A DNA stretch of 64,000 bases. Source: an uncultured delta proteobacterium (lineage in GTDB: Bacteria; Myxococcota_A; UBA9160; JAFDET01). Shown piece by piece: positions 1,571 to 19,872 of this stretch; positions within the stretch are counted from its first letter, which is position 1, and the number at the start of each line of letters is the position of its first letter. The notes below the pieces were generated by a model that saw only the letters and a list, made by a program, of their open reading frames with translations, was not told where the DNA came from and made no database searches. The DNA is taken from contig CAMYLJ010000012.1 in the NCBI GenBank assembly GCA_947259215.1, positions 15,589 to 79,588 on the forward strand, given 5' to 3'. A program made the position numbers and the translations under genes.

Positions 1571-2668
1571 CTAGCGGGCGGGAGCGGGGGTGTCGAACTC
1601 GGCCAGGCGCACGGGGCGGCGGCGCGCACCCCAGCTCCCAGGCGGGCCGTCGAAGACGCCGGGGCAGCGCACTCCGCAGGAGCGGCAGTGGCCGTCGTCG
1701 CTGAGGTTCCAGCCCGAGAGCACGTACCAGTCGCGCCCGATCAGGAGCTCGCCGCAGGCGTGGCACCAGGTGCTCTGGCCCTCGGGGTCGTGGACGTTTC
1801 CCGTGTAGACGTGGTGCACGCCCGCCTCGCGGGCGATCTCGCGGGCGCGCACGAGGGTTGCCGGCGGGGTGGCCGGAACGTCGCGCATGCGAAAGTCCGG
1901 GTGAAAGGCCGTGAAGTGGAGCGGCACGTCGGGCCCCAGATTCTCCATCACCCAGCGGCTGAGCTCGCGCAGCTCCTGGCTGGAATCGTTCTGGCCCGGG
2001 ATCAGCAGGGTGGTGATCTCGAACCAGACGTCGCTGTGGTGCTTCAGGTGCACCAGGGTGTCGAGCACCGGGGCCAGGTGGCCCGTGCAGAGCTTGCGGT
2101 AGAAGTGCTCCGTGAAGCCCTTCAGATCGATGTTGGCAGCGTCCATCCACTGGAAGAACTCGCGCCGCGGCTCTTCGCACACGTAGCCGGCCGTGACCGC
2201 GACGGAGCGGATGCCCCGCTCCCGGCACGCGCGCGCCGTGTCGATCGCGTACTCGAGGAAGATCACCGGGTCGTTGTAGGTGTAGGCCACGCTGCGGCAG
2301 CCGAGGGCCTCGGCTGCGCGCGCGATGCGCTCCGGCGGCGCCTCGTCCATCAGGGTGTCGAGCTCGCGCGACTTGCTGATGTCCCAGTTCTGGCAGAAGC
2401 GGCAGGTGAGGTTGCAGCCCGCGGTCCCGAAGGAGAGGACCGGCGTGCCGGGCAGGAAGTGGTTCAGGGGCTTCTTCTCGATGGGATCGACGCAGTAGCC
2501 GCTGGAGCGCCCCCAGGTGGTGAGCACCACCTCGCCGCCAATGTTGGCCCGCACGAAGCACAGGCCCCGCTGGTTGTCGTCCAGCTGACAGGCCCGCGGG
2601 CAGACGTCGCACTGCACGCGCCCATCGGGCAGCCGGTGCCAGTAGCGGGTGGAAACCTCCGACTCCAT
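1571..2668 (-). CDS. amrS: AmmeMemoRadiSam system radical SAM enzyme
   Basis: CNLTCRFCQNW is a CX3CX2C radical-SAM motif. The N-terminal Cys-rich YWHRLPDGRVQCDVCPRACQL and the C-terminal CHACG...CRSCG match the pyruvate-formate-lyase-activase-like AmmeMemoRadiSam partner. It lies divergent to the MEMO1-like and AMMECR1-like genes. Confidence 0.85.
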   Translation of the reverse strand: MESEVSTRYWHRLPDGRVQCDVCPRACQLDDNQRGLCFVRANIGGEVVLTTWGRSSGYCVDPIEKKPLNHFLPGTPVLSFGTAGCNLTCRFCQNWDISKSRELDTLMDEAPPERIARAAEALGCRSVAYTYNDPVIFLEYAIDTARACRERGIRSVAVTAGYVCEEPRREFFQWMDAANIDLKGFTEHFYRKLCTGHLAPVLDTLVHLKHHSDVWFEITTLLIPGQNDSSQELRELSRWVMENLGPDVPLHFTAFHPDFRMRDVPATPPATLVRAREIAREAGVHHVYTGNVHDPEGQSTWCHACGELLIGRDWYVLSGWNLSDDGHCRSCGVRCPGVFDGPPGSWGARRRPVRLAEFDTPAPAR

Positions 2669-2745
2669 GACCGGTCAGGATCGGTACGCGCCGGTGAAAG
2701 TCAACCAGGCCTTGCGTCGCCGGCGGCGGTGCCCATGCTATTAAC

Positions 2746-3540
2746 ATGCGCTGGAAGCGACCGCGCCGACCCGCCGTGGCCGGGCAATTCTACCCGGGCG
2801 ATCCGCGAGCGCTGGCGTCCGAGGTGCACGGATACCTGGACCAGGCGCGCGGCAACGAACATCCCGCTCCCAAGGCGATCATCGCTCCCCACGCGGGCTA
2901 CGTGTATTCGGGACCGGTGGCCGCCACGGCCTACGCACGCCTGGCGTCGGTCGCGGACGCCGTGGAGCGGGTGGTGCTGGTCGGGCCGTCGCACCGCGTG
3001 GCGTTTCGCGGTCTGGCGATCCCGTCCTCGGACGTCTTCACCACCCCGCTCGGCCCGATCCCCGTGGACCACGACGCCTTGCACGCCATCCGGTCGCTGC
3101 CCCAGGTGGTGGTCCGCGACGACGCCCACGAGAGCGAGCACAGCCTGGAGGTCCAGCTTCCCTTCCTGCAGGAGGTGCTGGGCGAGTTCGACCTCGTGCC
3201 CATCGCCGCCGGCGAGGCGAGCGCGGAGGAGGTGGCGGAGGTCCTCGACCGGCTCTGGGGCGGTCCGGAGACGTTGCTGGTGATCAGCAGCGACCTGTCC
3301 CACTACTACGACTACGAGACCGCGCGCCAGCTCGACGCCGTCACCACCCAGGCCATCGAGAAGCTGCGGCCCGAGGATCTCAACTGGGAGTCGGCCTGCG
3401 GGCGCGTCGGCGTGCGCGGCATGCTGGTGGCCGCCCGACGCCACGGGCTTCGCGCGCGCACCCTCGACGTCCGCAGCTCCGGCGATACGGCGGGCCCGCG
3501 GGACCAGGTGGTGGGCTACGGAGCCTATGAATTCGCCTGA
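2746..3540 (+). CDS. amrB: AmmeMemoRadiSam system protein B (MEMO1 family)
   Basis: The motifs AVAGQFYPGD, APHAGYVYSG, HSLEVQLPFLQ and ISSDLSHYY are characteristic of MEMO1/AmrB. Confidence 0.85.
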   Translation: MRWKRPRRPAVAGQFYPGDPRALASEVHGYLDQARGNEHPAPKAIIAPHAGYVYSGPVAATAYARLASVADAVERVVLVGPSHRVAFRGLAIPSSDVFTTPLGPIPVDHDALHAIRSLPQVVVRDDAHESEHSLEVQLPFLQEVLGEFDLVPIAAGEASAEEVAEVLDRLWGGPETLLVISSDLSHYYDYETARQLDAVTTQAIEKLRPEDLNWESACGRVGVRGMLVAARRHGLRARTLDVRSSGDTAGPRDQVVGYGAYEFA

Positions 3541-4078
3541 GCGCGAGACCCTGCTGCGGGTAGCGCGCGAGGCCGTGGTGGAGGGTGTCCGCCGGGGGAT
3601 ACCCTGGCTGCCCGATCCCCAGGAGTACCCGGCGAGCCTGCGCACTCCCGGCGCCAGCTTCGTGACCCTGCACGTGGACGGCCAGCTGCACGGCTGCGTC
3701 GGGAGCCTCGAGCCCGCGCGTCCGCTCGTGCTGGACGTCGCCCACAACGCCTTCGCAGCCGCCTTCCACGACCCGCGCTTCCCGTCGCTGGAGAAGGCGG
3801 AGCTCGAGGCGCTCGAGGTGCACATCGCGCTGCTGGGCCCGCTCCAGGCGCTCGAAGTGGGGTCGGAGGCGGAGCTGGTGGCCTGCCTGCGGCCGGGCGT
3901 GGACGGCCTGCTGCTCGAGGAAGGACGATATCGAGGCACCTTCCTGCCCGCGGTCTGGCAGAACCTCTCGGACCCGGAGGACTTCGTGCGCGCGCTCAAG
4001 CGCAAGGCCGGGCTGGCACCGGACCACTGGTCGGGCGCCGTGCGCGTCTGGCGCTACGAGGCGGAGTCGATTCCCTGA
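3527..4078 (+). CDS. amrA: AmmeMemoRadiSam system protein A (AMMECR1 domain)
   Basis: GASFVTLHVDGQLHGCVGSLEP, HDPRFP and GTFLPAVW are AMMECR1 hallmarks. It overlaps amrB by 14 nt. Confidence 0.85.
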   Translation: MNSPERETLLRVAREAVVEGVRRGIPWLPDPQEYPASLRTPGASFVTLHVDGQLHGCVGSLEPARPLVLDVAHNAFAAAFHDPRFPSLEKAELEALEVHIALLGPLQALEVGSEAELVACLRPGVDGLLLEEGRYRGTFLPAVWQNLSDPEDFVRALKRKAGLAPDHWSGAVRVWRYEAESIP

Positions 4079-4238
4079 GCCGACGCGCGGGCTCGCAAAC
4101 CCCCGTTGCGGCATCGGCTTTCCCGCCTGCGGCGATCGCGCAGGATGCAGGGCGCCACTCGAAGTTCAAGCTCCCGCTGCGGAATACCGATTCCGCCCTC
4201 GCTACTGCCAGGAGATCCCCCGGCGAGGATGCTGTCCC

Positions 4239-5366
4239 ATGCGCAAGGATTCGACGACGGCCGGCCGGCAGAGCGCCGGCGACGCAGCACTGGCCGACTG
4301 GACGAGCCCCGAGTGGCAGGGGCCCCACGCCCGCCTCCGCGACGATCTCTGCTATCGGACCATCTGGCTCGCTCGTGCCTTCGCCGGCCGTGAGCACCTG
4401 TTCGAGAAATGGGAGCGGCGGGTCCAGCGGCGCATCCTCGAGCAGTCCCGGGCGTCCGAGGAGGCGCCGGTGCGCGAGGTCGCGCACCTCTCCGTACGCG
4501 AGGCCGACGGCAGCACCGTCCGCCGCCTGATTGCCAATCACGTGCCCTTCGTGATCGACGGCTACCTGAAGGAGACCCAGGCGGTCCGGGATTGGTCCCT
4601 CGACACGCTGAACGAGCGCTGCGGAAAGGCCGCCGTCCATTCCTTCCAGGACGGTCTCGAGAGCGAGACGGATCGGCGCCCGTGGTACCACGAGCACACC
4701 TTCGAGTGGGCGACTTTCGGCGACGCGATCGACAGCATGCGCCGCGGCGAGCAGAACTACGTGACCGGCGTCTCCGCGATCTTCAAGCAGCACCCCGAGC
4801 TCATCCAGGAGGCGGGCCTGCCCGAGATCGAGCGCTTCGTCGGCCACGCGATCCGCAAGCCGGAGCTCTTCGTGGGCTCGACGCAGAACCAGACCTACTT
4901 CCACTGCGCGACCGCCGCCAACGTCTTCCTCCAGATCCACGGCCACAAGAAGTGGGTCCTCACGCACTCGCATCACTCGAACTGGATGTATCCGAGCTTC
5001 GGCTTCGGGCGTCTCGTGATGCGCTCGCCGATCATCAGCACGCGACCCGACGTCACCGACGACTATCCGCTCTTTGGCGCGATCCCCAGGTTCACGGTGC
5101 ACCTGGGGCCGGGCGACCTCTACTACAACCCGTCCTGGATCTGGCACGAGGTCTGGAACGTCACGGAGACGATCGGAATCGCCGCACGCATCATCCCGAG
5201 CGTGCGAACGCCGAATCCGTTCTTCGACTTCGTGCTCTACACGTCGGGGGTGTTCCTGAAGTACCTGCCGGCGATGGTGTGGGACTCGCTCACCGGCGGG
5301 CGCAAGTTCGCCTTCGACGACTCCATGGCCTCGGAAGCGTACCGGCACCGCTCCTCCCCGAGATAG
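4239..5366 (+). CDS. JmjC/cupin-8-like 2-oxoglutarate oxygenase-fold protein with an HxA variant metal site
   Basis: LFVGSTQNQTYFHCATAANVFLQIHGHKKWVL...GPGDLYYNPSWIWHEV matches the cupin_8/JmjC core (compare FIH [23 protein letters not shown]...YWWHHIES). The position of the carboxylate ligand is Ala224. A GAGGA motif lies about 8 nt before the ATG. Confidence 0.7.
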   Translation: MRKDSTTAGRQSAGDAALADWTSPEWQGPHARLRDDLCYRTIWLARAFAGREHLFEKWERRVQRRILEQSRASEEAPVREVAHLSVREADGSTVRRLIANHVPFVIDGYLKETQAVRDWSLDTLNERCGKAAVHSFQDGLESETDRRPWYHEHTFEWATFGDAIDSMRRGEQNYVTGVSAIFKQHPELIQEAGLPEIERFVGHAIRKPELFVGSTQNQTYFHCATAANVFLQIHGHKKWVLTHSHHSNWMYPSFGFGRLVMRSPIISTRPDVTDDYPLFGAIPRFTVHLGPGDLYYNPSWIWHEVWNVTETIGIAARIIPSVRTPNPFFDFVLYTSGVFLKYLPAMVWDSLTGGRKFAFDDSMASEAYRHRSSPR

Positions 5367-5411
5367 GCCTGGCTCGTGGCAGAGTCGACTCCCTGAGCCG
5401 GCGCCGCCCGG

Positions 5412-5834
5412 CTACAGGTCGCGCCGGAAGTGGAGGCTCGAGGCGCTGAAGCCCTCGCGCTCGTAGAAGCGGTGGGCCTCCGTGCGCTGGGTGCCGGAGT
5501 CCAGGTGCAGCTGGCGGCAGCCCTGGCTGCGCCCGTGGTCGGCGAGCCAGTCGAGCAGCGCCTTGCCGTGGCCGCGCGAGCGGGCCCCCGGGAGGGTCAC
5601 CAGGTCGTCCACGTAGAGGAAGCGCTCCCAGGCCAGGTTCTCACCGATGCGGAAGCCCGCGACGGCGACCACCCGGCCCGCATCGGCAACGCAGGCCAGC
5701 CGGTACCCCGTCTGCTCCTGGAGCCGCACGCGCGCCAGGAAGGCGTCCGCGTCGCTGCGATCCGTCCGCAAGCTCGCCATCACCGGGAAGCAGGCGCGGA
5801 TCTCCGCGTCGGTCTCGGCGATGCGAACCCCCAC
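5412..5834 (-). CDS. GNAT family N-acetyltransferase
   Basis: 140 aa with the acetyl-CoA loop PGARSRGHGKALLDW and the C-terminal AHRFYEREGF. It sits 10 nt downstream of purA on the same strand. Confidence 0.8.
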   Translation of the reverse strand: MGVRIAETDAEIRACFPVMASLRTDRSDADAFLARVRLQEQTGYRLACVADAGRVVAVAGFRIGENLAWERFLYVDDLVTLPGARSRGHGKALLDWLADHGRSQGCRQLHLDSGTQRTEAHRFYEREGFSASSLHFRRDL

Positions 5835-5844
5835 GGCCCCGCCG

Positions 5845-7119
5845 CTAGCCTCGGTCGATCAGCTGCGAGCGCTCCGGCCCCACCGAGACGTAGCGGATCC
5901 GGCAGCCGACCAGCTCCTCGATCCGCAGCACGTAGGCGCGCGCTGTCTCGGGCAGCGCGTCGAAGCTGCGGCAGCCCGTGACGTCCTCGTCCCAGCCCGG
6001 CCACTCCTCGTAGACCGGCCGCGCCTCGTCCAGGATCGGCGTCAGCGGGAAGCGGTCGCTGCGCCGGTCGCCGAACTGGTAGTGGGTGCAGATCTTGAGC
6101 GACGGCCGGCCGGACAGGCTGTCGAGCTTGGTGAGCGCCAGCTCGCTGGCTTCCTGGAGCTGCACGCCCCAGCGCGACGCCACCGCGTCGAAGTGCCCGA
6201 TGGTGCGCGCGCGCCCGGTGGTGGCGCCGTACTCCTCGGCGACCTCGCGCATGGCGTCGGCCTCGGAGTCGTCCATCATCGTCACGAAGGCGCCCTCGCC
6301 CACGCAGGTGGAGAACGCCTTCATCACGCCGAGCACCCGGTCGGGACGCACGCCGAAGAGCCCGCCGCCGATGGGCGCGAAGGCGGCGAGGCAGCAGCTC
6401 GAGGTGGTGAAGGGGTAGATCCCGAAGTGCACGTCGCGCAGGGCCCCGAGCTGGGCCTCGAAGAGCACGCGCTTGTCGGAGGCCACGGCCTCCTCCAGCA
6501 GCTGGCTGGTGTCGCAGATGCGGTCCTTCATGCGCTCGCCGAAGTGCCGCGACCACTCGAGCAGACGGTCGAAGGCGACGCCCTCCGCCTTTCCGTACAC
6601 GCGGCTCGCCACGATGTTCTTCCACTCCACCAGGTCGCGCAGCCGGCGCTCCAGGTAGTCCGGGAAGAGCAGGTCGCCCACGCGCACGGCCTTCTTGGCG
6701 TAGCGGTCGGCGTAGGCGGGCGCGATGCCGTTCTTGGTAGAGCCGTAGGCGCGGTCGCCCAGGCGCTCCTCCTCCCAGGCGTCCTCGTCGCGGTGGAACG
6801 GGAACAGGATCGTGGCGCGGTCGGAGACCACCAGGCGTGAGCAGTCGATCCCCGACCGCTCCAGGCCCTCGATCTCGTCCACCAGCGCCTCCAGGTTCAC
6901 CACCGTTCCCGGCCCCAGGACGCAGGTCACGTGGTCGTAGAAGACACCGGAGGGGATGAGGTGCAACGCGAACTTGCCGTGCTCGTTCACCACGGTGTGG
7001 CCCGCGTTGTTGCCGCCCTGGTAGCGGATGACGAAGTCCGCCTGGCGGGCCAGGTAGTCGACCATGCGACCCTTGCCCTCGTCGCCCCAATTGATGCCGC
7101 ACACGATCTCGACGCTCAT
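5845..7119 (-). CDS. purA: adenylosuccinate synthase
   Basis: WGDEGKGRMVDYL, RYQGGNNAGHTV and the full-length 424-aa pattern are typical of PurA. Confidence 0.9.
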   Translation of the reverse strand: MSVEIVCGINWGDEGKGRMVDYLARQADFVIRYQGGNNAGHTVVNEHGKFALHLIPSGVFYDHVTCVLGPGTVVNLEALVDEIEGLERSGIDCSRLVVSDRATILFPFHRDEDAWEEERLGDRAYGSTKNGIAPAYADRYAKKAVRVGDLLFPDYLERRLRDLVEWKNIVASRVYGKAEGVAFDRLLEWSRHFGERMKDRICDTSQLLEEAVASDKRVLFEAQLGALRDVHFGIYPFTTSSCCLAAFAPIGGGLFGVRPDRVLGVMKAFSTCVGEGAFVTMMDDSEADAMREVAEEYGATTGRARTIGHFDAVASRWGVQLQEASELALTKLDSLSGRPSLKICTHYQFGDRRSDRFPLTPILDEARPVYEEWPGWDEDVTGCRSFDALPETARAYVLRIEELVGCRIRYVSVGPERSQLIDRG

Positions 7120-7304
7120 GGCCCTCGCTCCCGGCCGCGCGGGAGCCCGGGGCGCACGTGCCCCGGGGATGCCGACGACCTGGTTTTGCTGGGGGAAGCC
7201 CGCCCTGGTGGAAGATCCGGGGCCGGGGTCCGAGGGCGAATGCTAGCAGCTCCCCTTCGGGGACGCCCCTCAAGGACCGATGCGCGGCATCCGATCCACC
7301 TCCC

Positions 7305-7613
7305 ATGCGAACCTTCATTGCGATCCTCGCCCTGGCCCTGACCCTCTCCGGATCCGCCGCGGCGGACTCGCTCGGGATCTCCTGCGACGGCGACCTGATC
7401 GGAAAGGGCGCCTCCAAGGCCGAGGTCCTGCTGCACTGCGGCGAGCCCCTGATCCGCGAGGAGGTCGGCGACATCCGACAGGACACGCCCGAAGGCCGCA
7501 GCAAGCTGCGGGTAGAGGAGTGGACCTACGACGTGGGCGAGGGCTCCTTCCTGCGCATCCTGACCTTCCACGGCGGGACCCTGGTCGAGATCGACATCGG
7601 CGAGCGGCGCTGA
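7305..7613 (+). CDS. DUF2845-like small secreted protein
   Basis: The ATG at 7305 gives the signal peptide MRTFIAILALALTLSGSAAA. This is followed by ISCDGDLIGKGASKAEVLLHCGEP...EEWTYDVGEGSFLRILTFHGGTLVEI, the two-Cys DUF2845 pattern. Confidence 0.7.
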   Translation: MRTFIAILALALTLSGSAAADSLGISCDGDLIGKGASKAEVLLHCGEPLIREEVGDIRQDTPEGRSKLRVEEWTYDVGEGSFLRILTFHGGTLVEIDIGERR

Positions 7614-7653
7614 CACGCCAGGAGGATCGCCAGCCGCTAGCCTCCAGCGCGCA

Positions 7654-10335
7654 ATGCCTCGGCGCGCCTCCGGCTGTCTCCTGCTGCTCCTCACCCTGCT
7701 GGCGACGCCCGCTGCGGCCGAGCTGCATGCGGAGCGGATCAGCGCGGCCAACGCCGCGGCCCGGCGCGTCGGCGGTCCCGACGCCATCGCCGGCGTGGGC
7801 GACTGGGCGCTCGGGAACGGCACGCTGTGCGCGGCCCTGGCCGATCCGAGCCGCGAGACGGTCCTCGCCACCAGCGGCGGCGTGCTCGTCGACCTGGGCC
7901 ACTGCGGTCGCGGCGACGATCGCTTCATCCAGCTCCAGCCGCTGCTGAACCTCTCCCGCGGCGAGACCCCCCCGGTGGCCGACGTGTGGGCGGAGCGCGA
8001 CGCCGAGGCGGCCCGTCTCGTCACCCGCGGCGAGGCGGAGGGCGCGCGCTTCGAGACCACCTACGAGCTGTCCCTGGCCCGCCCGACCGCCCTACGGGTG
8101 CGCACCCGGGTGGACGGCCGCGAGGGCGGCGCCCGGGTCTTCCTGTTCGGCGACGTGATCCTGAACGGGCGCGCCGCCCTGGCGCCCTTCACGCTGCACA
8201 CCGGTGACCTCGCGCAATCGTCCGGCCACACGCATCCGGACGTGGACCCCGACTCGTACCGCTCGCTCCTCCGCGGCCTGCGGAACAGCGATCTCCAGGT
8301 GCTCGTGGGGGCGGAGCGCGGGAGCCCGGGCATCGCCTACGGCGTGCGCCTGGTCGACGCCCACCACGTGGGGCGCGACGGGCGCGCCCGCGCCGTGCCC
8401 TCCCTGGCGCTCACGGGCGAGGACTTCTCGCTGCTCGGCGTCCTCGCCAACCCGCTCTGGCTCGGCAACCCGGACCGCATCGGCCTCGTGGCGTTGGCGC
8501 AGACCCTCTTCATGGACGTCGAGGAGGGCGAGCGGCTGGTCTTCGAACGCGAGGTGCTGGTGGGACGTCGGGGCGACGTGGCGTCGGTGACGGACCAGGT
8601 CTGGCCGGACGCCACCCGGGTCAGCGGGCGGGTGGACGACCCGGAGGCGCGGATCGAGGTGGCGCTCGTCGAGGGGGCGCCCTTCACCTGGCTGCGGCCC
8701 GGTCCCGACGGGCGCTTCGTGTTCCGCGCACCCCCGGGCGAGTACACCGTCACGGCCAGCACGCCCGACGGGCGCCGGGACGAGCAGCAGCGCCGGCTCG
8801 CGGACGCCGCCGCGAGTCTCGAGCCCTTCCGCCTGGGCGAGCCAGCGCGGGTGCGGCTGCCGCGCGGCCAGCCCATGCGTCTCGTCTTCCGCGGGCTGGA
8901 CGGCACGCCGGATCCCGAGCTCGGCGCCGACCGGCCGCGGCTGCGCTTCGGCGAGCGGGTGGTTCCGCCCCACCGCCAGGGACCCGACGTCTCGCTGGCG
9001 GGTCGCGCCGGGGATCCCGAGGCCGTCGTGCTGCGACCGGGACGCTATCGGGTCTACGCCACCCGGGGACCGGAGTTCGACGTGACCGTGGCGGAAGTCG
9101 CGCTCGAGGCCGGGAGCGACACGTTGCTCGAGATCGCGCCGCCGCCGCGGGCGCTCGAGACCCCGGGCTGGATCGCCGCCGACTTCCACGTCCACGCCGA
9201 GCCGTCGGACGACTCCGCCATGCCGATGCGGCAGCGGGTGGCGTCCTTCGTGGCCCAGGGCGGCGAGGTGCTGGTGGCCACGGACCACGACCGGGTCAGC
9301 GACTTCGCCCCGCTGCTGCGCGAGCTCGACCTGGCCGGCCAGGTGGCCAGCGTGGTCGGCACGGAGCTGACGGCCACCGTGCAGGGTCCGGAGAACCCCC
9401 ACACCTCCGGTCACTCGAACCTCTTCCCGGTCCCGCGCGATCCCGTCGGCTACCGCGACGGCACGCTCGACCACGAGGGCCGCCGCATCCGCAGCGTGAT
9501 CGCCGAGCTGCGCGCGCTGGGCGGGGAGCGCATCTGGCAGCTCAACCATCCGCGGAGCGGATCCGGTTCGCCGGGGAGCCTGCACTACTTCGAGCACCTC
9601 TCCGTGGCGGGAGAGCCCTTCGACCCGACCCGGCCGCTCGACGACGAGCGCAACCGCGCGCTCGTAGCGCCCGATCCGGAGACCGGCGTCCGCGACCTCG
9701 ACTTCGACGCGGTCGAGCTCATGAACGGCGCCCCCATGTCCTACTACCGCGCGGTGCGCGCGGACTGGTTCTCGCTGCTGCTCCAGGGCGAGCTGCGCAC
9801 TGCCACCGCCAACAGCGACACCCACGTGGCGCAGGAGATCGCCGCGCTGCCGCGTACCTACGTGCGCATGGCCGACGACGACCCGGGCGCGTTCGACGAG
9901 GCCGAGCTGGTGGCGGCGCTCCGTGCCGCCCGCGCCTGGGGCAGCACCGGGCCCATCCTCGACGCCCGCCTGGGCGAGGCCCGGCCCGGCGAGCGCCATG
10001 CCGGCGCGAGCGGCAGCCTGCGGGTGGAGGTGCGCGCGGCAGCCTGGGTCCCTGTGTCGCAGCTGCGCGTCTACGTGAACGGCGCGCTCGCCGACGCCCG
10101 CGAGATCGCCCCCGGCGGGAGCGCAGAGCTGGCGCTGCGCTTCGACGCCGACGCCTTCGTGACCGTCGAGGTCGAGGGCGAGCCCGGAGAGGTCTACGCC
10201 GCCGTCGCGCCCGGCTACACACCCTTCGCCTTCACGAACCCCATCTTCGTCGACGCGGACGGCGACGGCCGCTGGACGCCCCCGGGCCTGCCCGAGCCGC
10301 TCCCCATCACGATCACCCACCGCCGGGACCGGTGA
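7654..10335 (+). CDS. large secreted protein with a C-terminal PHP-fold (CehA/McbA-like) metallohydrolase domain
   Basis: Signal peptide CLLLLLTLLATPAAAE. The C-terminal half has ADFHVHAEPSDDS, VATDHD, TSGHSNLFPV, QLNHPRSG, VELMNG and ANSDTHV, a PHP-type His/Asp constellation. I do not recognise the N-terminal ~500 aa. Confidence 0.6.
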   Translation: MPRRASGCLLLLLTLLATPAAAELHAERISAANAAARRVGGPDAIAGVGDWALGNGTLCAALADPSRETVLATSGGVLVDLGHCGRGDDRFIQLQPLLNLSRGETPPVADVWAERDAEAARLVTRGEAEGARFETTYELSLARPTALRVRTRVDGREGGARVFLFGDVILNGRAALAPFTLHTGDLAQSSGHTHPDVDPDSYRSLLRGLRNSDLQVLVGAERGSPGIAYGVRLVDAHHVGRDGRARAVPSLALTGEDFSLLGVLANPLWLGNPDRIGLVALAQTLFMDVEEGERLVFEREVLVGRRGDVASVTDQVWPDATRVSGRVDDPEARIEVALVEGAPFTWLRPGPDGRFVFRAPPGEYTVTASTPDGRRDEQQRRLADAAASLEPFRLGEPARVRLPRGQPMRLVFRGLDGTPDPELGADRPRLRFGERVVPPHRQGPDVSLAGRAGDPEAVVLRPGRYRVYATRGPEFDVTVAEVALEAGSDTLLEIAPPPRALETPGWIAADFHVHAEPSDDSAMPMRQRVASFVAQGGEVLVATDHDRVSDFAPLLRELDLAGQVASVVGTELTATVQGPENPHTSGHSNLFPVPRDPVGYRDGTLDHEGRRIRSVIAELRALGGERIWQLNHPRSGSGSPGSLHYFEHLSVAGEPFDPTRPLDDERNRALVAPDPETGVRDLDFDAVELMNGAPMSYYRAVRADWFSLLLQGELRTATANSDTHVAQEIAALPRTYVRMADDDPGAFDEAELVAALRAARAWGSTGPILDARLGEARPGERHAGASGSLRVEVRAAAWVPVSQLRVYVNGALADAREIAPGGSAELALRFDADAFVTVEVEGEPGEVYAAVAPGYTPFAFTNPIFVDADGDGRWTPPGLPEPLPITITHRRDR

Positions 10336-10352
10336 TAGACTGTCCGCCAGCA

Positions 10353-10508
10353 ATGCCGGACCTCGACTACGGCCTCTTCGACGCCGACAACCACTACTAC
10401 GAGTCCCGCGACTGCTTTACCCGGCACCTGGATCCGTACCTGCGCGACGTGTTGCGCGAGAACGCGCGCCGGCTGATCTCCCCCGACTGGTCTCCGGCGG
10501 ACGCCTAG
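10353..10508 (+). pseudogene. 51-codon relic of an amidohydrolase-2 gene (N- and C-terminal ends joined)
   Basis: It reads MPDLDYGLFDADNHYYESRDCFTRHLDPYLRDVLRENARRLISPDWSPADA*. DADNHYYE is the N-terminal metal motif of this family and ENARRL is its usual C-terminal tail. About 350 internal codons are missing. Confidence 0.5.
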
Positions 10509-10512
10509 GCCC

Positions 10513-10929
10513 ATGCCCGACAACTGCATCTTCTGTCAGATCGTCGCGGAGCAGGCACCGGCCCATCGGGTGATCGAAGACGACCTGGCCGTGGCCTTCT
10601 GCGACATCTTTCCGATCGCGACTGGCCACACGCTCGTGATCCCGCGTCAGCACGCGGCCAACGTATTCGAGATCGACGAAGAGCCCATGCGCGCCACCGC
10701 GGCCCTGGCGCGGCGCGTATCCCACGCGCTGCGCGACGCGCTCGCCCCCGACGGGCTGGCCGTCTACCAGGCCAACGGCGCCGCCGCCGGCCAGACCGTC
10801 TGGCACTACCACGTCCACCTGATCCCGCGCAACGACGGCGAGCCCCTGGCCTTCCACGGCCGCACGCGCGCCGACGACGCGGAGCTGGCGGCGATGGCGA
10901 AGCGCATCGCCGGGCACCTGCCGGGCTAG
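10513..10929 (+). CDS. HIT family nucleotide hydrolase/transferase
   Basis: CIFCQI and the histidine triad VWHYHVHLIP. Confidence 0.85.
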   Translation: MPDNCIFCQIVAEQAPAHRVIEDDLAVAFCDIFPIATGHTLVIPRQHAANVFEIDEEPMRATAALARRVSHALRDALAPDGLAVYQANGAAAGQTVWHYHVHLIPRNDGEPLAFHGRTRADDAELAAMAKRIAGHLPG

Positions 10930-11468
10930 AGCCCCGGCAGACCATCGATGCTCTTCGCGTTGTGGGCGCGCCGGTAGGCCGCCACCCCCTCCTTGGCCTG
11001 CTTGCGCGCCACCCAGTCGGGAAGCTGGCTGCGCTCGCCCTGGTAGGCGTAGAGCGCCACGCCGTAGCCGCACGAATCCGAGATGCGGTCGAGCTCCAGC
11101 CGGATCACCGCTCGCGCGCCCGGATGCTCCGGAAAGCGCGCCGCCAGGTCGGGGTAATCCGGATGCTCGGGCTCGAGTGCCTCGCCGCGCCCGTGCAGGC
11201 GCACGATCAGCGGCGGACCCTCGAAGGCGCAGAACATCAGGACGATGCGGCCATTCTCGCGCAGATGCGCCACCGTCTCGACGCCGCTTCCCGTGAGGTC
11301 CAGGTACGCCACCGAGGTGGGGCCCAGGATCGCGAAGGTGTCGAGCCCCTTCGGCGACAGGTTCACGTGCCCGTCCGAAGCCAGGGGCGCCGTGGCCACG
11401 AAGAAGAGATTCTGGGCCAGCAGGAAGTGCTCGAGCCGCTCACTGATCGCGTCGTAGATCTTGCCCAT
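10926..11468 (-). CDS. pyridoxamine 5'-phosphate oxidase family protein
   Basis: FFVATAPLASDGHVNLSPKG, YLDLTGSGVETVAHL, GRIVLMFCAFEGPP and SCGYGV form the typical split-barrel FMN-binding family pattern. Confidence 0.7.
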   Translation of the reverse strand: MGKIYDAISERLEHFLLAQNLFFVATAPLASDGHVNLSPKGLDTFAILGPTSVAYLDLTGSGVETVAHLRENGRIVLMFCAFEGPPLIVRLHGRGEALEPEHPDYPDLAARFPEHPGARAVIRLELDRISDSCGYGVALYAYQGERSQLPDWVARKQAKEGVAAYRRAHNAKSIDGLPGL

Positions 11469-12300
11469 GCGTCAGCCACTCCAGGTCGTTGAATCCCGCT
11501 TGCGAGACGACCACGCGCTCCGGCGTGAGCTCCTCGCGGAAGATCGCGATCGATTCCTCGGCGTAGCCGGGCTCGGCCCAGTCGCCGAAACCGAGGGAGC
11601 GTAGGCGCTCCAGGGCCGCGCGGCTGCGGCGACCCCCGGCGCCGTCGCCGAGGAAGAAGTCGTCCACCACCACGCGGTCCACCACCGGCGCGAGCCTCCG
11701 CGCCAGCTGCCGGGGATCGCCGGGCAGGAGCGGCGCGACCGCCGCCTGGGTGCGCACGCCCGCCTCGCGCAGGCGGCCGAGAGCCTCGATCCGCAGCCCC
11801 GTTCCGGGCGCGTTCGGCTCGAGGGCGCGCCGCACCGCCTCGTCGCCCGTCGCCACCGTCATGCTCACCAGCGCCGACGGGATCCGCGCCAGCAGCTCCG
11901 CGTCGCGGACGACGAGCGGGCTCCGCGTCTGGAGCACCAGGGCCGCGGGCGGGCAGCGGGCCATCACCTCCAGGCAGCCGCGGGTGAGCCCCAGCCGCCG
12001 CTCGAGGGGCGTGTAGGGATCGGTGACCGACGAGCAGAAGATGCGCGCGGGGCCGAGCCGCCCGCGCTCCGCCTCGCGCGCCAGGAGCTCCGGCGCGTTG
12101 CGCTTGGGGGCGAGCCAGGTCGACCACGCCAGCCCCTCGGGCGCCGTCCTCTGGGGCGCCATCTGGCGCACGTAGCAGTAGGCGCAGGCGAACTCGCAGC
12201 CCGAGTAGGGCTGGAGCGTGTGGCTGAAGCCCGAGAGGTAGCCACCCGTCGGGGTCAGGATCGAACGCGCATCGCGGACGAACAAGCGCACGCGAGACAT
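11440..12300 (-). CDS. radical SAM protein, SplB/DNA-photolyase-like family
   Basis: SGCEFACAYCYV is a CX3CX2C motif. Its size and pattern resemble COG1533-type radical SAM enzymes. It overlaps the downstream gene by 29 nt. Confidence 0.65.
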   Translation of the reverse strand: MSRVRLFVRDARSILTPTGGYLSGFSHTLQPYSGCEFACAYCYVRQMAPQRTAPEGLAWSTWLAPKRNAPELLAREAERGRLGPARIFCSSVTDPYTPLERRLGLTRGCLEVMARCPPAALVLQTRSPLVVRDAELLARIPSALVSMTVATGDEAVRRALEPNAPGTGLRIEALGRLREAGVRTQAAVAPLLPGDPRQLARRLAPVVDRVVVDDFFLGDGAGGRRSRAALERLRSLGFGDWAEPGYAEESIAIFREELTPERVVVSQAGFNDLEWLTHGQDLRRDQ

Positions 12301-12314
12301 GGCCCGAAGGTAGC

Positions 12315-12377
12315 GGGGACGTTGGTTAAGAAGTTAAGAAACTGCAGCAGTTTCTTAACTTCTTAACCAACGTCCCC
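12315..12377. repeat. 63-nt perfect AT-rich palindrome (TAAGAAAC family, copy A)
   Basis: GGGGACGTTGGTTAAGAAGTTAAGAAACTGC-A-GCAGTTTCTTAACTTCTTAACCAACGTCCCC has 31-nt arms. It lies immediately downstream of the ilvE stop and is flanked by TAG and CTAG. It shares GGGGACG, TAAGAAAC and a central GC-A-GC with copy B at 57142. Confidence 0.85.
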
Positions 12378-12385
12378 TAGATCCC

Positions 12386-13306
12386 CTAGAGGTAGGTCAG
12401 CCAGTCCTCGTGCTTGCGGTCTTTGCCGCGCACGACCTCGAAGAACGCGGACTGGAGGGCCTTCGTGACGGGCCCGCGGGTGCCAGCGCCGATCGTGCGC
12501 CGATCCACCTCGCGGATGGGCGTCACCTCGGCGGCGGTGCCGGTGAGGAAGAGCTCGTCGGCGATGTAGAGCTCGTCGCGGCCCAGGGCCCGCTCCGTCA
12601 CGCCGATGCCCTTCTCGCGCGCCAGCTCGATCGCGGTGGCCCGGGTGATCCCGGCCAACACCGTCGGCAGGGGCGGCGTGATGATCTCCCCGTCGCGCAC
12701 CAGGAAGAGGTTCTCGCCGCTGGCTTCGGCGACGAACCCCTGGCTGTCGAGCATGATGGCCTCGTCGTAGCCGTCGAGCAGCGCCTCGCGCTTGGCCAGG
12801 ATCGAGTTCACGTAGTCACCGCAGGTCTTGCCCTTCGCCATCTTGGCGTTCACGTGGTGGCGCTGGAAGGTGGAGACCTTGGCGCGAATGCCCTGCTCCA
12901 TCCCCTCTTCCCCCAGGTAGGCGCCCCAGGCGTAGGCGATGATGGCCAGGCGGATCGGGTTGTCGCCCGGATTCAGCCCCATGGCGCCGTCGCCCACGAA
13001 GACCAGGGGCCGGATGTAGCCCTCGTCCAGGCCGTTGGCGCGCAGGGTCTCGCGGATCGCGGCCGACACCTCCTCCCGGGAGAACGGCACCTCCAGCAGG
13101 TTGATGTGTGCCGATTCGAACAGCCGCTGCACGTGCTCGGCGAGCCGGAAGACGGCGGAGCGCCCGTCGTCCGTCCGGTAGGAGCGGATCCCCTCGAAGA
13201 CGCCCAGGCCGTAGTGCAGGGTGTGGGTCAGGACGTGGACCCGGGCGGCGTCCCAGTCGACGAGCTCGCCGTCGAGCCAGATCTTCTCGCCGCTCACGCC
13301 GGACAT
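12386..13306 (-). CDS. ilvE: branched-chain amino acid aminotransferase
   Basis: IWLDGELV, HTLHYGLGVFEGIR and EASGENLF over 306 aa give a class IV aminotransferase pattern. Confidence 0.9.
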   Translation of the reverse strand: MSGVSGEKIWLDGELVDWDAARVHVLTHTLHYGLGVFEGIRSYRTDDGRSAVFRLAEHVQRLFESAHINLLEVPFSREEVSAAIRETLRANGLDEGYIRPLVFVGDGAMGLNPGDNPIRLAIIAYAWGAYLGEEGMEQGIRAKVSTFQRHHVNAKMAKGKTCGDYVNSILAKREALLDGYDEAIMLDSQGFVAEASGENLFLVRDGEIITPPLPTVLAGITRATAIELAREKGIGVTERALGRDELYIADELFLTGTAAEVTPIREVDRRTIGAGTRGPVTKALQSAFFEVVRGKDRKHEDWLTYL

Positions 13307-13316
13307 GCGGGGCAGG

Positions 13317-15248
13317 CTAGCGGCGCAGCAGCTTGCTCACCAGACCTCGCTGCTTCTCGCGTCGCAGGTTGATCAGGCGCAGCTCGCGGAGCGCCTCCAC
13401 GCAGTCGCTCTTCAGCTGGACCGCCTTCAGGAACATGCGCTCGGCCCGCTCCGGATCGCCCAGGGACTTGAAGATCTGGCCCAGCAGCAGGTAGGGCTTG
13501 TCGCTGTCCGGAGCCAGCTTGGCGGCCCGCTTCAGGGCCCGCAGCGCCTCGTCGCGCGCCGCGCTCTTGCCGTTCCCGGTCAGGAAGCGGGTCCAGCCCA
13601 GGTACGCCAGGTACTCGCCCTCCTCGGGGTAGAGCTCGACCGCCTGGAGGAACTCCTCGTGCGCCTGCTGGTTGAGCTTGTTGCGGAGCGCCACCTCGCC
13701 CTGCTGGAAGTGACGCTCGGCCTCGACGGCCCGGCGACTCTCCTCCAACGCCTCCGCGTCGCGCTCGCCCTTGGCGAGCTCCATGCGGTACGCCTCGCGG
13801 CTCTTGCGGTCGGCCAGATGTTCGTGGGCCTGGGACACGAGTCCGAAGATCTCCTCCGCCAGCCGCTTCACGGCGTCGCTGTAGCCGCTGAAGCGGTCCG
13901 GGTGGGTGCGCTTCGCCAGGTCGACGTACACGTCCCTCACCTCGTCGTCCTGACAGTTATTGGAGACACCGAGCACCTCGAAGAAGTTCCTGCCGCCCCG
14001 CATGCGCTCGGCCATCACGGCCAGCTCCTTGCGGATGCCCGCCTCCTTGGGGCTTCCCTGCGCCGGCTTGGCCGCGGCCAGGCGCGCCCGGGCGGCGGCC
14101 GCGGCGTCGGCCGCCGAGCCCGCGTCCGCCGCGGAGGAGGCCGTCTTCAGCTCCACCAGGCCGGCGGCCACCAGGCCGTAGAGCATGCGTCGCGTGGGCT
14201 CGTCCCGGCCCAGGACCTCGCTCACCGGGACCTCCCGGTCCGCGCTCTCCAGCATGGCCTGGGTGGTGTCGCCCAGGTCCACGTCCTGGAACTGGTAGAA
14301 GGGGATCTCGCCGGCGCGCACCACCTGGTCGGCGTGGCTGCGCAGGTAGGCGTCGATCCGCGCCAGCGGGAAGCGCCGCCGAACCCCCTCGGTGATCACG
14401 TTGGCCGGACTCTCGTCCAGGGGCAGCGAGCTCGCGCCCTTGAGCCGGCCGCCGCGCTTGAACTCGAAGGTGCCCTGGGTCCACTCGAAGACCTCGTTGA
14501 GCTTCTCCTCGGCCTGCACGCGCAGGGCGTTGGCGATCTCCTCTTCGGTCAGCACCTTCATCGCCACCAGGATCTCGCCCTGGAGGCCCTCGCCCTGCTC
14601 CATCCGCGAGCGCGACTCGCTGAGATCGGTGTCGCTGATCCGGCCCATGCGCACCAGGAGGTTTCCGAGGCACTCGCTCACCAGGTTCGACTTCACGGCG
14701 ACCGCACGGCCATCGCGGAGCTGGAGGCCCTTGCGCTTCTTGCCCGAGTGCACGAGCAGGGCCCCGCTGGCGCGCAGGCCGTGCAGCTGGTGCAGCAGCA
14801 TGGGGAAGTCCATCTCCTCGAGCGAGCCCGTCAGCTTGGGCGCCGCGGCGGAGGCCTGGGGCGCAGCCTTGCGCACCCGCGGCGCCGCCGAGAGGTGCTT
14901 GCGCACGTTCTCGAGCAGCACGTTCAGCGGCACGGGCTTCGTCAGGAAGGCGCCGGCGCCCAGGGCCTCGGCCCGCTCGAGGTACTCCGGGGTGCGCGAG
15001 CAACCGGTGATGAAGAGCGCCGGCACGTTGCCGCCCGAGGCACGGATCTGCTGGAGCACGCCGAATCCGTCGCGCTTCGGCAGCAAACAGTCGAGCAGCA
15101 CGAGGTCCGGACTGGCGGCGCTGAAGGCCGAGAGCGCTTCCTCGCCGTCGTGGGCGGTGCGCACCTCGTAGCCCTCACCCGCGAGGGCCTTGGCGATGAT
15201 CTGGCAGAGGGTTCGGTCGTCATCGACGCAGAGGACTGTGTGGGGCAT
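13317..15248 (-). CDS. multidomain response regulator: receiver, DUF4388, DnaJ (J) domain and TPR
   Basis: The N-terminal receiver has VLCVDDD...LVLLDCLLPKRDG. The DUF4388-like block runs from MDFPMLLHQLHGLRASGALLV to WTQGTFEF. The J domain has FFEVLGV...THPDRF. The C-terminus carries TPR-like repeats. Confidence 0.75.
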   Translation of the reverse strand: MPHTVLCVDDDRTLCQIIAKALAGEGYEVRTAHDGEEALSAFSAASPDLVLLDCLLPKRDGFGVLQQIRASGGNVPALFITGCSRTPEYLERAEALGAGAFLTKPVPLNVLLENVRKHLSAAPRVRKAAPQASAAAPKLTGSLEEMDFPMLLHQLHGLRASGALLVHSGKKRKGLQLRDGRAVAVKSNLVSECLGNLLVRMGRISDTDLSESRSRMEQGEGLQGEILVAMKVLTEEEIANALRVQAEEKLNEVFEWTQGTFEFKRGGRLKGASSLPLDESPANVITEGVRRRFPLARIDAYLRSHADQVVRAGEIPFYQFQDVDLGDTTQAMLESADREVPVSEVLGRDEPTRRMLYGLVAAGLVELKTASSAADAGSAADAAAAARARLAAAKPAQGSPKEAGIRKELAVMAERMRGGRNFFEVLGVSNNCQDDEVRDVYVDLAKRTHPDRFSGYSDAVKRLAEEIFGLVSQAHEHLADRKSREAYRMELAKGERDAEALEESRRAVEAERHFQQGEVALRNKLNQQAHEEFLQAVELYPEEGEYLAYLGWTRFLTGNGKSAARDEALRALKRAAKLAPDSDKPYLLLGQIFKSLGDPERAERMFLKAVQLKSDCVEALRELRLINLRREKQRGLVSKLLRR

Positions 15249-15296
15249 GGGCCCCGCTTATCGTCCGTCCGGGGGGGGTTGCATGAGTGAGCAGTG

Positions 15297-16351
<1,055 letters not shown>

Positions 16352-16355
<4 letters not shown>

Positions 16356-18439
16356 TTCTTCAGGATCCCTTCCAGCACGTCCGTGACGGTCTTGCCCGAG
16401 CCCTCGCCCAGGCGCTCGTCGATCTCGCGCGAGATGTCTTCGCGCTTGCGGTAGAACTCCTCGCGCGCACCGAGGGACGCCAGGGCCTGGGGAGAGATGT
16501 CCACCCGCGGCGAGTCGACGCTGCCGGTCACGCGGGTCAGGGGAATCACCTTCACGCGGGTTTCGTCGGCCGCTTCCTTCAGCAGCGTGATCTCGCCGGT
16601 CATGTCGAGGCTGCGGTCCTCGAGCCCCATGGAGCCGCGCAGGTCCACGGTGTAGTCGCGGTAGACCAGACGCAGGTCCTTCGTGTGCGCGCGCCCACTC
16701 TTCACGTCCACGCTGCCCGAGATGGACTCGAACTCGTCGGACTCGAGCCGCGCCAGGCGGTCGGAGCCGCGCAGGCGGTTCGCCACCAGGGCGGTCTCGG
16801 CCACCGCGCCGATCGCGGCGAGGCTCTGCTTCAGCAGGGACACCCCGTGCAGCCGCCCGCGGCCGACGTCGAAGGCCAGCTTGCCCGCGAGGCGCTGGGC
16901 CAGCCGGCCGTCGCCGCCGAGGTCGCCCGCCAGCTTCGCGTCCAGGTTGAGCGGCCCCTCGATGAAGTCCTTGCCCGCGTAGGCGCGAGCCAGGGCTCCG
17001 AGGTCCAGGCCCTTGCCGATCGCATGGGCCTGGAAGAACTGCTCGCCGGCGAGGTCCAGGGAGCCCGCCAGGCCGATCGGCTGCCCCGCGGCCACGAGCA
17101 CTAGGTCACGCGTGGCGACGGATCCGCCTCGACCCTCCAGCGCCCCGCGCAGCACGTAGGCGGGACTCCCGGGCGGCGTGAGGGAGACGTCGTCCAGCAC
17201 GAGCGCGCCCTTCAGCGAGAGGGGCTCGGTCTCGAGCACGAGTCCGTCCAGGCCCAGCCGGCCTGCCGGCTGGTAGCCGCGCAGCGCCACCAGCGACGCG
17301 TCCCAGCCCGCCAGCTCGAAGGCCGGCGCCGAGAGCGCGGCCCGGAAGCGTGGCGCGGTGCGAACACTTCCCTGGGCGTCGAGATTCTGGAGCTCGACGC
17401 GCACGTCCTCGACGTCGTAGCCGCCGCCCTCCAGCGGCACCACGCGGCCGGTGGCCGTCGCCGCCTGCCCGGCCGGCTTGGAGAAGGCGCGCCCGTAGTC
17501 GAGGGTGGCCTGGGTGGCGTCGATCGTGAACGGCCCTCCCGGGCCGGGCTGCGAGAGGTTGGCCTCGAGCGCGATCCGGCCGGCCAGCGCCAGCTCGTCC
17601 AGCGCCAGCTCGCCGCCTTCCAGGACCAGCTTGGCCTTCACGTCCTGCACGCGGCCGTCGTCGCGGCGCAGGCGCAGGTCGCCGGTCAGCGGACCCGCGA
17701 GCTTCCAGTCCGAAGCCAGGTAGGGGCGCGCCGCACCGGTCTCGACGCCGTCCAGGCGCAGCGCGGCCTCGAGCGCGCCGGCCAGGGTGAAGCTGCCGGC
17801 GACGCGCAGGTCACCTCCGCTCCCGAGGCGCCCCTCTGCCGCGAACTCCAGCGGGGAATCGAGATCGGTGGCGTGCACGCGGCCCTCGAGGCCCGAGAGA
17901 TCCCAGATGACGGGCGGCGTCACCGTCACGTCCTCCAGCAGCACCCGCGCGTCCTTCAGGTCGAAGCTCCGGACGGCGAGGGCGAAGCCCTCGTCCTTCT
18001 CCTCCTGCGGCTCGCGCCGCTCCCCGGGCGGCCGCGGCTTGCGCTCCTTTTCGGGCGGTCGCGGCAGCTCGATCCCGTCCTCGGTGCGGCGCAAGCGCAG
18101 GGTGGCGCCCTCCACCACCAGCGAGTCCACCACGACGGCGCGGGCCAGCAGCGGCATCAGCGCCAGCTCGAGCGCGACGGAGCCGGCTTCGGCGAAGGGC
18201 GGCGACTCCGGCGAGGCGCCCGCCATGGACGGGCCGCTCACCACGAGCCGCGGCGGCAGCAGGCCCACGCGCAGCTCGCTCCAGCTGACGTCGCGACCCG
18301 TGGCGTCCCGCGCCGCGTCCTGGAGCCGCGCGCGCATCTCCTCGCCTTCGACGAGTCGCGGCAGGTAGAGCGCCAGGCCGCCCAGCAGCGCGGCACCGAG
18401 CAACGCCAGGCCGACGAGAATGCGTACGACCACGCTCAT
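16352..18439 (-). CDS. AsmA family outer-membrane biogenesis protein
   Basis: An N-terminal TM anchor [24 protein letters not shown] is followed by a long beta-rich repetitive body with an AsmA-like C-terminus. It has 4-nt overlaps with both neighbours. Confidence 0.65.
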
Positions 18440-19872
18440 CCCTCCAGTCTGCGGGCCAGGATCTCGCGCACCAGGCCGGGGCTGGCCTTGCCCCCGGTGC
18501 GCCGCATGACCTGACCCATCAGGAAGTTCAGCACCTTTGCCTCGCCGGCGCGGAACCGCTCCACGTCGTCCGGGTGCGCCGCCAGCACCTCGTCCACGGC
18601 CGCCTCCAGGGCCCCGGTGTCGGACACCGCCTCCAGGCCTCGCTCGCCGACCAGGGACTCGGGGTCGCCCCCTTCGTCCATCAGCACGCCCAGCACCTCG
18701 CGGGCGCTCCTGGGTGTGACGCGTCCGGAGTCCACCAGCTTCAACAGGGCCGACAGGGCCGGGGCCGTGAGGGCGGTCTCCTCCAGGTCGCGCTCCCGCT
18801 CCTTCAGGGCCCCCCGCACGTCGCGGCCGATCCAGTTGGCGACCGTCTTGGCGTCGCCGTGGGCGCGCGTCACGGCCTCGAAGAAGTCCGCCAGGGGGCG
18901 GGTGGCCACCAGCAGGCGTGCGTCGTACTCCGACAGGCCGTGCTCCACCTCGAAGCGGGCGCGCTTCTCCGCGGGCAGCTCGGGCAGCGCGGCACGCACC
19001 TCCGCGATCCGGGCGGCGTCGAGCGCCAGGGGCACCAGGTCCGGATCCGGGAAGTAGCGGTAGTCGTCCGCATTCTCCTTCACCCGCATCACGCTGGTGG
19101 TGCGGCGCTCGGGATCGAACTGCATGGTGGCCTGGATGATCTCGCCGCCTTCCTCGAGCACCCCCGTCTGGCGCTGGATTTCGGCCTCGATCGCGGCCTC
19201 CACGTAGCGGAAGGAGTTCAGGTTCTTCACCTCGGTGCGCGTGCCGAGCACGTCGCTGCCCGTCGGGCGCAGCGACAGGTTCACGTCGCAGCGTAGCTGC
19301 CCCTTCTCCATGTCCGCATCGGAGACGTCGATGTAGCGCAGGATCCGGCGCAGGGCGCGCAGATAGGCGCTCGCCTCCGCCGCCGAACGCAGCTCCGGCT
19401 CCGAGACGATCTCGAGCAGCGGCGTCCCTGCGCGGTTCAGGTCCATGTGCGACTCGTCCTCGCGCTCCTCCTCCCCGTGGACCGACTTCCCCGCGTCCTC
19501 CTCCATGTGGATGCGCGTCAGCGGGATCCGGCGCACCTCGCCGTCCACCTCGATCTCGACCCCGCCCCCGGTGATGACGGGCTCCTCGAACTGGGAGATC
19601 TGGTAGCCCTTGGGCAGGTCCGGGTAGAAGTAATTCTTGCGCGCGAAGACCGAGCGGGAATGGACCTCGCCGCCGACCGCCAGGCCCGCACGCACCGCCA
19701 GCGCGATCGCCTCGCGGTTCGGCACGGGAAGCGCACCCGGGAGCGCCAGGCAGACAGGGCAGACCTGGTGGTTGGGCTCGCCGCCGTAGTGCACCGCACA
19801 GCCGCAGAACATCTTCGAGGCCGTCTTCATGTGGACGTGCACCTCGAGACCGATCACGGGCTCGAAGCTCAT
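18436..19872 (-). CDS. gatB: Asp-tRNA(Asn)/Glu-tRNA(Gln) amidotransferase subunit B
   Basis: [26 protein letters not shown] and a C-terminal YqeY-like tail. Confidence 0.9.

Follow-up and report, generated by a model that had tools for sequence, protein, structure and literature searches.

What does an iron(II)- and 2-oxoglutarate (2OG)-dependent oxygenase of the JmjC type do when the acidic residue expected among its iron ligands has been replaced by alanine? The question is raised by an open reading frame (ORF) at positions 4239-5366 of the forward strand of a 64,000-nucleotide stretch of DNA, referred to here in its entirety as the window, from an uncultured delta proteobacterium (GTDB lineage Bacteria; Myxococcota_A; UBA9160; JAFDET01; GenBank assembly GCA_947259215.1, contig CAMYLJ010000012.1, positions 15,589 to 79,588). 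The ORF encodes a 375-residue protein of the Cupin_8/JmjC-type Fe(II)/2OG oxygenase fold, and its G+C content at third codon positions (GC3, 0.92) matches that of the adjoining real genes. Sequence comparison suggests, tentatively, a catalytically competent, free-standing JmjC/Cupin_8 enzyme with a two-histidine iron site, similar to the halogenase OocP, which may halogenate a hydrophobic small molecule.

Fold and Iron Site

The original prediction for this locus, made from the nucleotide sequence, had assigned the product to the JmjC/cupin-8 fold, had placed an alanine at the position of the iron carboxylate ligand and had regarded the 2OG-binding residues as kept; each of these assignments is borne out. 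Residues 95-308 match Pfam Cupin_8 (PF13621) with an E-value of 2.2e-23 and 83.9 bits against a cut-off of 27.4 bits, accompanied by weak matches to JmjC_2 and Cupin_2, and no NCBIfam model matches the protein. Searched singly against the PDB with phmmer, the window protein found OocP first (8a82_A, 7e-11), followed by FIH (about 1e-5) and JMJD5 (about 1e-4). A profile of 50 family sequences matched 8a82_A with an E-value of 2.6e-50 over nearly its full length (profile 15-346 to OocP 25-375) and JMJD5 with 4e-37 over the core only. An AlphaFold2 model built with the same 50-sequence alignment had a predicted local distance difference test score (pLDDT) of 91.2 and a predicted template-modeling score (pTM) of 0.91; in a Foldseek search of the PDB it again placed 8a82_A at rank 1 (E 5e-20; template-modeling scores 0.71/0.75 over 362 columns), the next matches being FIH, JMJD5, JMJD7, and TYW5 at E-values of about 1e-15.

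Three separate alignments, to FIH, JMJD5, and OocP, confirm at the level of sequence that Ala224 stands at the carboxylate-ligand position, encoded by the codon originally reported. In the phmmer alignment, His222, Ala224, and His303 pair with His199, Asp201, and His279 of FIH, and in the FIH D201A mutant (2ilm) it is the mutant alanine that pairs with Ala224. The family profile pairs H-C-A with H-Q-D of JMJD5 and with H-Q-G of OocP. In place of the canonical JmjC triad, HxD/E...H, the protein therefore carries H-C-A at 222-224, and the Thr/Asn/Lys set with which canonical JmjC hydroxylases bind 2OG is present and conserved. The role of FIH Thr196 in contacting 2OG is established. The relevant codons are as follows, with conservation counted in a MAFFT alignment of the best 152 of 1156 relatives:

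4893..4895, forward strand: ACC, Thr219, predicted contact of the 2OG C5-carboxylate, equivalent to FIH Thr196 by alignment; Thr or Ser in 139/152.
4902..4904, forward strand: CAC, His222, putative proximal iron ligand, opening the HxD-equivalent motif; 152/152; aligned with FIH His199 and with the His of JMJD5 HQD and OocP HQG.
4905..4907, forward strand: TGC, Cys223, the "x" of the motif; Cys in 113/152; Gln in OocP and JMJD5.
4908..4910, forward strand: GCG, Ala224, at the Asp/Glu-ligand position; aligned with FIH Asp201, JMJD5 Asp323, and a Gly of OocP.
4920..4922, forward strand: AAC, Asn228, predicted 2OG contact in an HxxxN motif, equivalent to FIH Asn205; Asn in 141/152; Ser in OocP.
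4947..4949, forward strand: AAG, Lys237, predicted salt bridge to the 2OG C5-carboxylate, equivalent to FIH Lys214; 152/152; Lys in OocP, JMJD5, and FIH.
5145..5147, forward strand: CAC, His303, putative distal iron ligand in an N-P-x-W-W-W-H motif; 152/152; aligned with FIH His279.
5157..5159, forward strand: Asn307, on the same strand as His303 and four residues beyond it, candidate second-sphere residue; the sampled HxA family has it without exception and OocP shares it, whereas JMJD5 has Ala here and L015, an HxD relative, has Thr.
5187..5189, forward strand: Arg317, candidate contact of 2OG or substrate; invariant in the sampled family and in OocP, whereas JMJD5 has a gap here and the HxD relative a Trp.

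The side chain of Cys223, which lies in a beta-strand, should face away from the metal. Three acidic residues were considered as substitutes for the lost carboxylate and none was convincing: Asp293 sits in a PGD turn common to FIH; Glu304 adjoins His303, points the opposite way and is Ala in many clades; and Asp361, in the C-terminal helix, is conserved, but it is also found in the halogenase OocP.

Conservation of the HxA Motif

A word-indexed protein search returned three proteins, namely the window protein, an orthologue with 65% identity (P0002), and one distant relative, all of them HxA. An exhaustive HMMER search of 1.84 billion representatives yielded the 1156 relatives at E<=1e-3, 329 of them at E<=1e-10. 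At the ligand position the best 152 carry Ala in 139 cases, Gly in 4, and Asp or Glu in 6, and the full H-C-A motif recurs in 113; P0002 and P0153, a member of the 90% cluster, both keep it. Among cupins encoded in the related loci that were fetched, 52/54 lack the carboxylate, and the two exceptions, both HxD, stand farthest away.

Conservation of the motif in P0002, P0153, and 139/152 relatives rules out a lone degenerate copy or a sequencing error. The possibility raised with the original prediction, that orthologues might uniformly carry HxD, was thus not realized, and HxA is the conserved state. The codon argument that had been offered against a sequencing error is right in part: GCG is two substitutions from an Asp codon, yet a single one turns it into GAG (Glu), and HxE sites are normal among JmjC proteins. 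That single step is immaterial because the same relatives carry HxA. Absence of the carboxylate across a family that retains its 2OG-binding residues argues, on these alignments, that the loss is an old trait under selection and not decay. The invariance of His222, Lys237, and His303, together with the high conservation of Asn228 and Thr/Ser219, likewise argues for an active enzyme under selection.

Relationship to OocP and Other Two-Histidine Enzymes

The identity of OocP is taken from the title of PDB entry 8A82, "Fe(II)/aKG-dependent halogenase OocPQ" (released 2023-03-08), and from the description of OocP as the Fe(II)- and alpha-ketoglutarate (aKG)-dependent, trans-acting halogenase of the oocydin trans-acyltransferase (trans-AT) polyketide synthase (PKS), in which it forms a heterodimer with OocQ (PMC11260071). 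It is the closest solved and characterized relative of the window protein, both by sequence and by fold, which favors the halogenase idea. The two share the Cupin_8 core, an N-terminal helical extension and C-terminal helices, a two-histidine site where a small residue stands in for the carboxylate, and equivalents of Lys237, Asn307, and Arg317. They differ in that identity is only about 21%; OocP has H-Q-G for H-C-A, Ser for Asn228, and W-P-H for W-W-H; and OocP works with OocQ on a PKS-bound chain, whereas the window gene has neither a PKS nor a partner gene nearby.

Phylogenetic placement was assessed with a neighbor-joining tree of Kimura distances (200 bootstraps, rooted on JMJD5), in which deep nodes are weakly supported. 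OocP fell outside the HxA/G family in 0/200 bootstraps, and the window protein grouped with P0002 in 200/200 and with the relative L017 in 125/200. The survey shows OocP to be the only studied member of a family of more than 1000 sequence clusters, most sampled members of which are free-standing. A JmjC-fold two-histidine Fe/2OG enzyme is accordingly of a kind already known since OocP, and the statement accompanying the original prediction that no halogenase is built on this fold does not stand; whatever its activity, the window protein is not the first JmjC-fold halogenase. To our knowledge, every Fe/2OG halogenase before OocP was built on the classical 2OG-oxygenase scaffold.

FIH and JMJD5 share with the window protein the Cupin_8/JmjC fold, both His-ligand positions, and the Thr/Asn/Lys positions for 2OG, and FIH has the same W-W-H motif. 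Both differ in having HxD (Asp201 in FIH, HQD in JMJD5) where the window protein has Ala, and in acting on proteins; JMJD5 also lacks the N- and C-terminal extensions and equivalents of Asn307 and Arg317. Halogenases of the SyrB2/CytC3/WelO5/AmbO5 type have the same His-X-Ala...His motif, which lets halide bind the iron (PMC6817910; PMC2938197). In contrast to the window protein, they use the classical 2OGFeDO scaffold (PhyH/clavaminate-type) and not JmjC/Cupin_8, and phmmer and Foldseek searches of the PDB gave no sequence match and no top fold match to them. AspH, too, holds iron on two His only, with a small residue replacing the carboxylate, but belongs to another 2OG-oxygenase subfamily and is a eukaryotic enzyme of the endoplasmic reticulum acting on epidermal growth factor (EGF)-domain proteins; in PDB sequence searches no AspH sequence matched the window protein or the family profile. 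AspH is a natural two-His 2OG hydroxylase without halogenase activity toward chloride, and the FIH D201G variant is catalytically viable and hydroxylates (PMC6817910); a further source likewise describes the AspH two-His site as capable of hydroxylation (PMC13168262). The earlier description of HxA or HxG as the hallmark of halogenases fits the nearest characterized relative, OocP, but fails for AspH and FIH D201G.

Genomic Settings of Related Cupins

Ninety-four related loci were assembled, comprising 13 genome loci (found by a scan with 8 close sequences), 73 metagenome loci, and several contigs recovered by exact protein. The closest relatives with usable flanks lie mostly in sterol-type clusters. 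Such clusters with an H-C-A cupin were found in cyanobacteria, a Byssovorax metagenome-assembled genome, and metagenome contigs, and an SdmB-like reductase is among their genes:

L007, 957-12768, Calothrix rhizosoleniae: squalene epoxidase-cyclase fusion, ERG2/Sigma1R, KshA-like Rieske protein, the cupin, EBP, a geranylgeranyl-reductase-like FAD protein, an NAD epimerase/3beta-hydroxysteroid dehydrogenase, a cytochrome P450 (P450), and a second Rieske protein.
L004, 2687-15380, Coleofasciculus: epoxidase, cyclase, the cupin, three P450s, and a squalene synthase-like gene.
L018/L019 (L018 at 3117-13217): P450, cyclase, epoxidase, squalene synthase, and Rieske KshA_C, followed by a tandem pair of H-C-A cupins and by a polyprenyl synthase.
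L021, 1983-8189: the cupin, P450, cyclase, and Rieske KshA_C.
L023, L024, and L005 (Byssovorax metagenome-assembled genome; L005 at 6657-10218): homologues of the same sterol-cluster genes.

The gene content of these clusters matches the published bacterial sterol toolkit of SdmA (Rieske), SdmB (reductase), and CYP51, for which the reported products are cholesterol, 25-hydroxycholesterol, and other oxysterols (PMC10202945). No cupin is mentioned in the literature on bacterial sterol synthesis that was found. Tandem pairs of H-x-A cupins, as at 10001-11146 and 11177-12187 of L018, also occur in L038, L042, L057, and L014, and this arrangement suggests paralogues that act in sequence.

More distant relatives occupy trans-AT PKS clusters (L027, L034, L052, L063, and L072) with ketosynthase, ketoreductase, acyl carrier protein, RhiE-like linker, and stand-alone acyltransferase components, the last in L052. 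The cupins of this subgroup (L027 at 3692-20879) carry the motif FHCANELN...WWWHA and are encoded between giant genes of trans-AT PKSs. Their setting is of the kind in which OocP is found, but they have H-C-A instead of H-Q-G. At about 10 loci of more distant relatives the neighbors include an acyl-AMP ligase (AMP-binding), and in L012 and L013 a glycosyltransferase, a Rieske/PaO oxygenase, and an RND pump adjoin the cupin. Two close relatives, L017 and L020, have unrelated neighbor genes. The common theme of these settings is the tailoring of hydrophobic small molecules and not protein modification.

Proposed Activity and Substrate

Under the halogenase reading, Fe(II) would be held by only two protein ligands, His222 and His303, with Ala224 replacing the Asp/Glu. 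As alignment with FIH suggests, 2OG would chelate the iron and be anchored through Thr219, Asn228, and Lys237, and a ligand from outside the protein, most likely chloride or bromide by analogy with OocP, would occupy the site freed by Ala224. Activation of O2 with decarboxylation of 2OG would then generate a (halo)ferryl species, which may abstract hydrogen from an unactivated aliphatic C-H of a hydrophobic small molecule, leaving a substrate radical that would rebound onto the halide.

The same fold and the same two-His site could be put to another use. If the open site holds water and no halide, the enzyme would hydroxylate or desaturate a hydrophobic substrate, such as a sterol side chain or ring, in the manner of AspH or FIH D201G, both of which attest that such a site can hydroxylate. 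The sterol-cluster setting of the closest relatives is in keeping with this, as known sterol-cluster products are oxygenated, no enzyme has been assigned to 25-hydroxycholesterol and other oxysterols, and several genes of the Calothrix sterol cluster lack an assigned function (PMC10202945). Set against hydroxylation are the halogenase activity of the nearest characterized homologue, which lies inside the family, and the presence of Ala at position 224 in 94% of the members sampled, a frequency that points to selection for a site left open and large enough for an anion. Halogenases also make up most of the natural HxA/G 2OG enzymes known. Sequence cannot decide between the two activities; halogenation is put forward as a tentative first choice, with two-His hydroxylation or desaturation as a serious possibility ranked after it.

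The substrate, judged by analogy with the relatives, is probably lipid-like and probably not a protein side chain. A sterol or triterpenoid is the leading guess because relatives are embedded in sterol clusters. A narrower proposition, and an unlikely one, is that sterols or triterpenoids are the substrates of the window protein and of the clade nearest to it, these being free-standing halogenases of the JmjC fold or other anion-transfer enzymes. Halogenation of this sort might be overt, or it might be cryptic, as in a functionalization of the tertiary C-25 whose end products would be the so far unexplained 25-hydroxy or conjugated sterols that Enhygromyxa and Calothrix contain.

Several points weigh against halogenation of a sterol-like substrate by the window protein. 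The iron ligands, His222 and His303, are putative, having been assigned from sequence alignments, and an HxA motif is insufficient to prove halogenation, given that AspH and FIH D201G hydroxylate. The 64-kb window contains no oxidosqualene cyclase, squalene epoxidase, SdmA, or P450 gene, and no PKS or OocQ-like partner gene, the latter absence also being in favor of hydroxylation. The window protein joined the sterol-linked clade in only 73/200 bootstraps, its own small group (P0002 and L017) has no sterol context, and the sterol literature found makes no mention of a halogenated bacterial sterol. The lack of sterol clustering in the window is not decisive because the sterol genes of Enhygromyxa salina are themselves scattered and not clustered (PMC10202945).

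Neighborhood of the Gene and the AmmeMemoRadiSam Genes

The gene lies, as first reported, directly after amrB-amrA in the same orientation, 160 bp beyond amrA. Positions 1571-4078 hold a complete AmmeMemoRadiSam trio:

1571-2668, reverse strand: amrS (TIGR04337, E 1e-193), divergent from amrB and upstream of the cupin gene.
2746-3540, forward strand: amrB (TIGR04336).
3527-4078, forward strand: amrA (TIGR04335), overlapping amrB by 14 nt.

This arrangement invites the explanation that the cupin is co-transcribed with amrB-amrA and modifies the same substrate, which might be a protein as it is for FIH and JMJD5, and simple scans of the 160-bp gap found no promoter- or terminator-like site. Among the loci compared, the association is nevertheless peculiar to this one. 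The proposal that orthologues might co-occur with AmmeMemoRadiSam genes found no support, tblastn with the window AmrA, AmrB, and AmrS giving no match in any of the 94 related loci with flanks of 8-10 kb. The end of an ABC-transporter gene, not amrA, lies upstream of the 65%-identical orthologue, and the relatives occur in small-molecule biosynthetic contexts. The NCBIfam AmmeMemoRadiSam models define the A, B, and radical-SAM components only. Adjacency to amrB-amrA is incidental and not conserved, and a partnership with the Amr proteins is largely refuted and very improbable. Downstream of the same orthologue, at 1785-2045 of L001, the start of a gene resembles a flavin monooxygenase of the Baeyer-Villiger type; the one PDB entry that it matched, 5mq6, a polycyclic-ketone monooxygenase, is a weak match (E 2.6e-4).

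A non-catalytic or metal-free JmjC-like pseudoenzyme that has lost its facial triad, as the absence of one of the three canonical metal ligands might suggest, is scarcely credible given the conservation of both His and the 2OG-binding residues across 152 diverged relatives and given that OocP, a homologue using the same ligands, is an active enzyme. The probability that remains falls to explanations other than those listed here.

Beyond the cupin gene lie a convergent GNAT gene and purA. Genes such as purA, gatCAB, and one of the TauD family give the window, which has a G+C content of about 70%, the look of housekeeping chromosome. The TauD/TfdA-family gene (34257-35141, reverse strand; E 1e-46) encodes a second Fe/2OG enzyme, and a class I methyltransferase gene is located nearby at 36590-37378. 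An 893-residue protein encoded at 7654-10335 (forward strand) starts with a stretch resembling a signal peptide and matched no Pfam family at E<=1e-5. At 11440-12300 (reverse strand) lies a stand-alone radical SAM gene, with CxxxCxxC near the N-terminus and unrelated to amrS, which shares 29 nt with the end of a PNPOx-like gene (10926-11468), and at 13317-15248 (reverse strand) a response regulator is fused to DUF4388, DnaJ, and TPR domains. The latter gene and the high G+C content are in keeping with a Myxococcota-like genome, though no proof of one.

Significance

For the window alone, the outcome is a well-founded annotation as an OocP-like two-His Fe/2OG enzyme that is not an AmmeMemoRadiSam component. 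The wider interest attaches to the large free-standing H-C-A family and its recurrence in bacterial sterol clusters, of which no description was found in the literature. If part of this family halogenates, it would constitute a large new pool of C-H functionalization catalysts for lipid-like substrates. The sterol-cluster cupins are, separately, concrete candidates for bacterial sterol tailoring steps that have no assigned enzyme, a question that bears on the reading of sterol biomarkers and of the origin of eukaryotic sterol synthesis. If the window protein and its nearest clade do halogenate sterols or triterpenoids, no 2OG enzyme and no halogenase would have been assigned to the tailoring of bacterial sterols before them.

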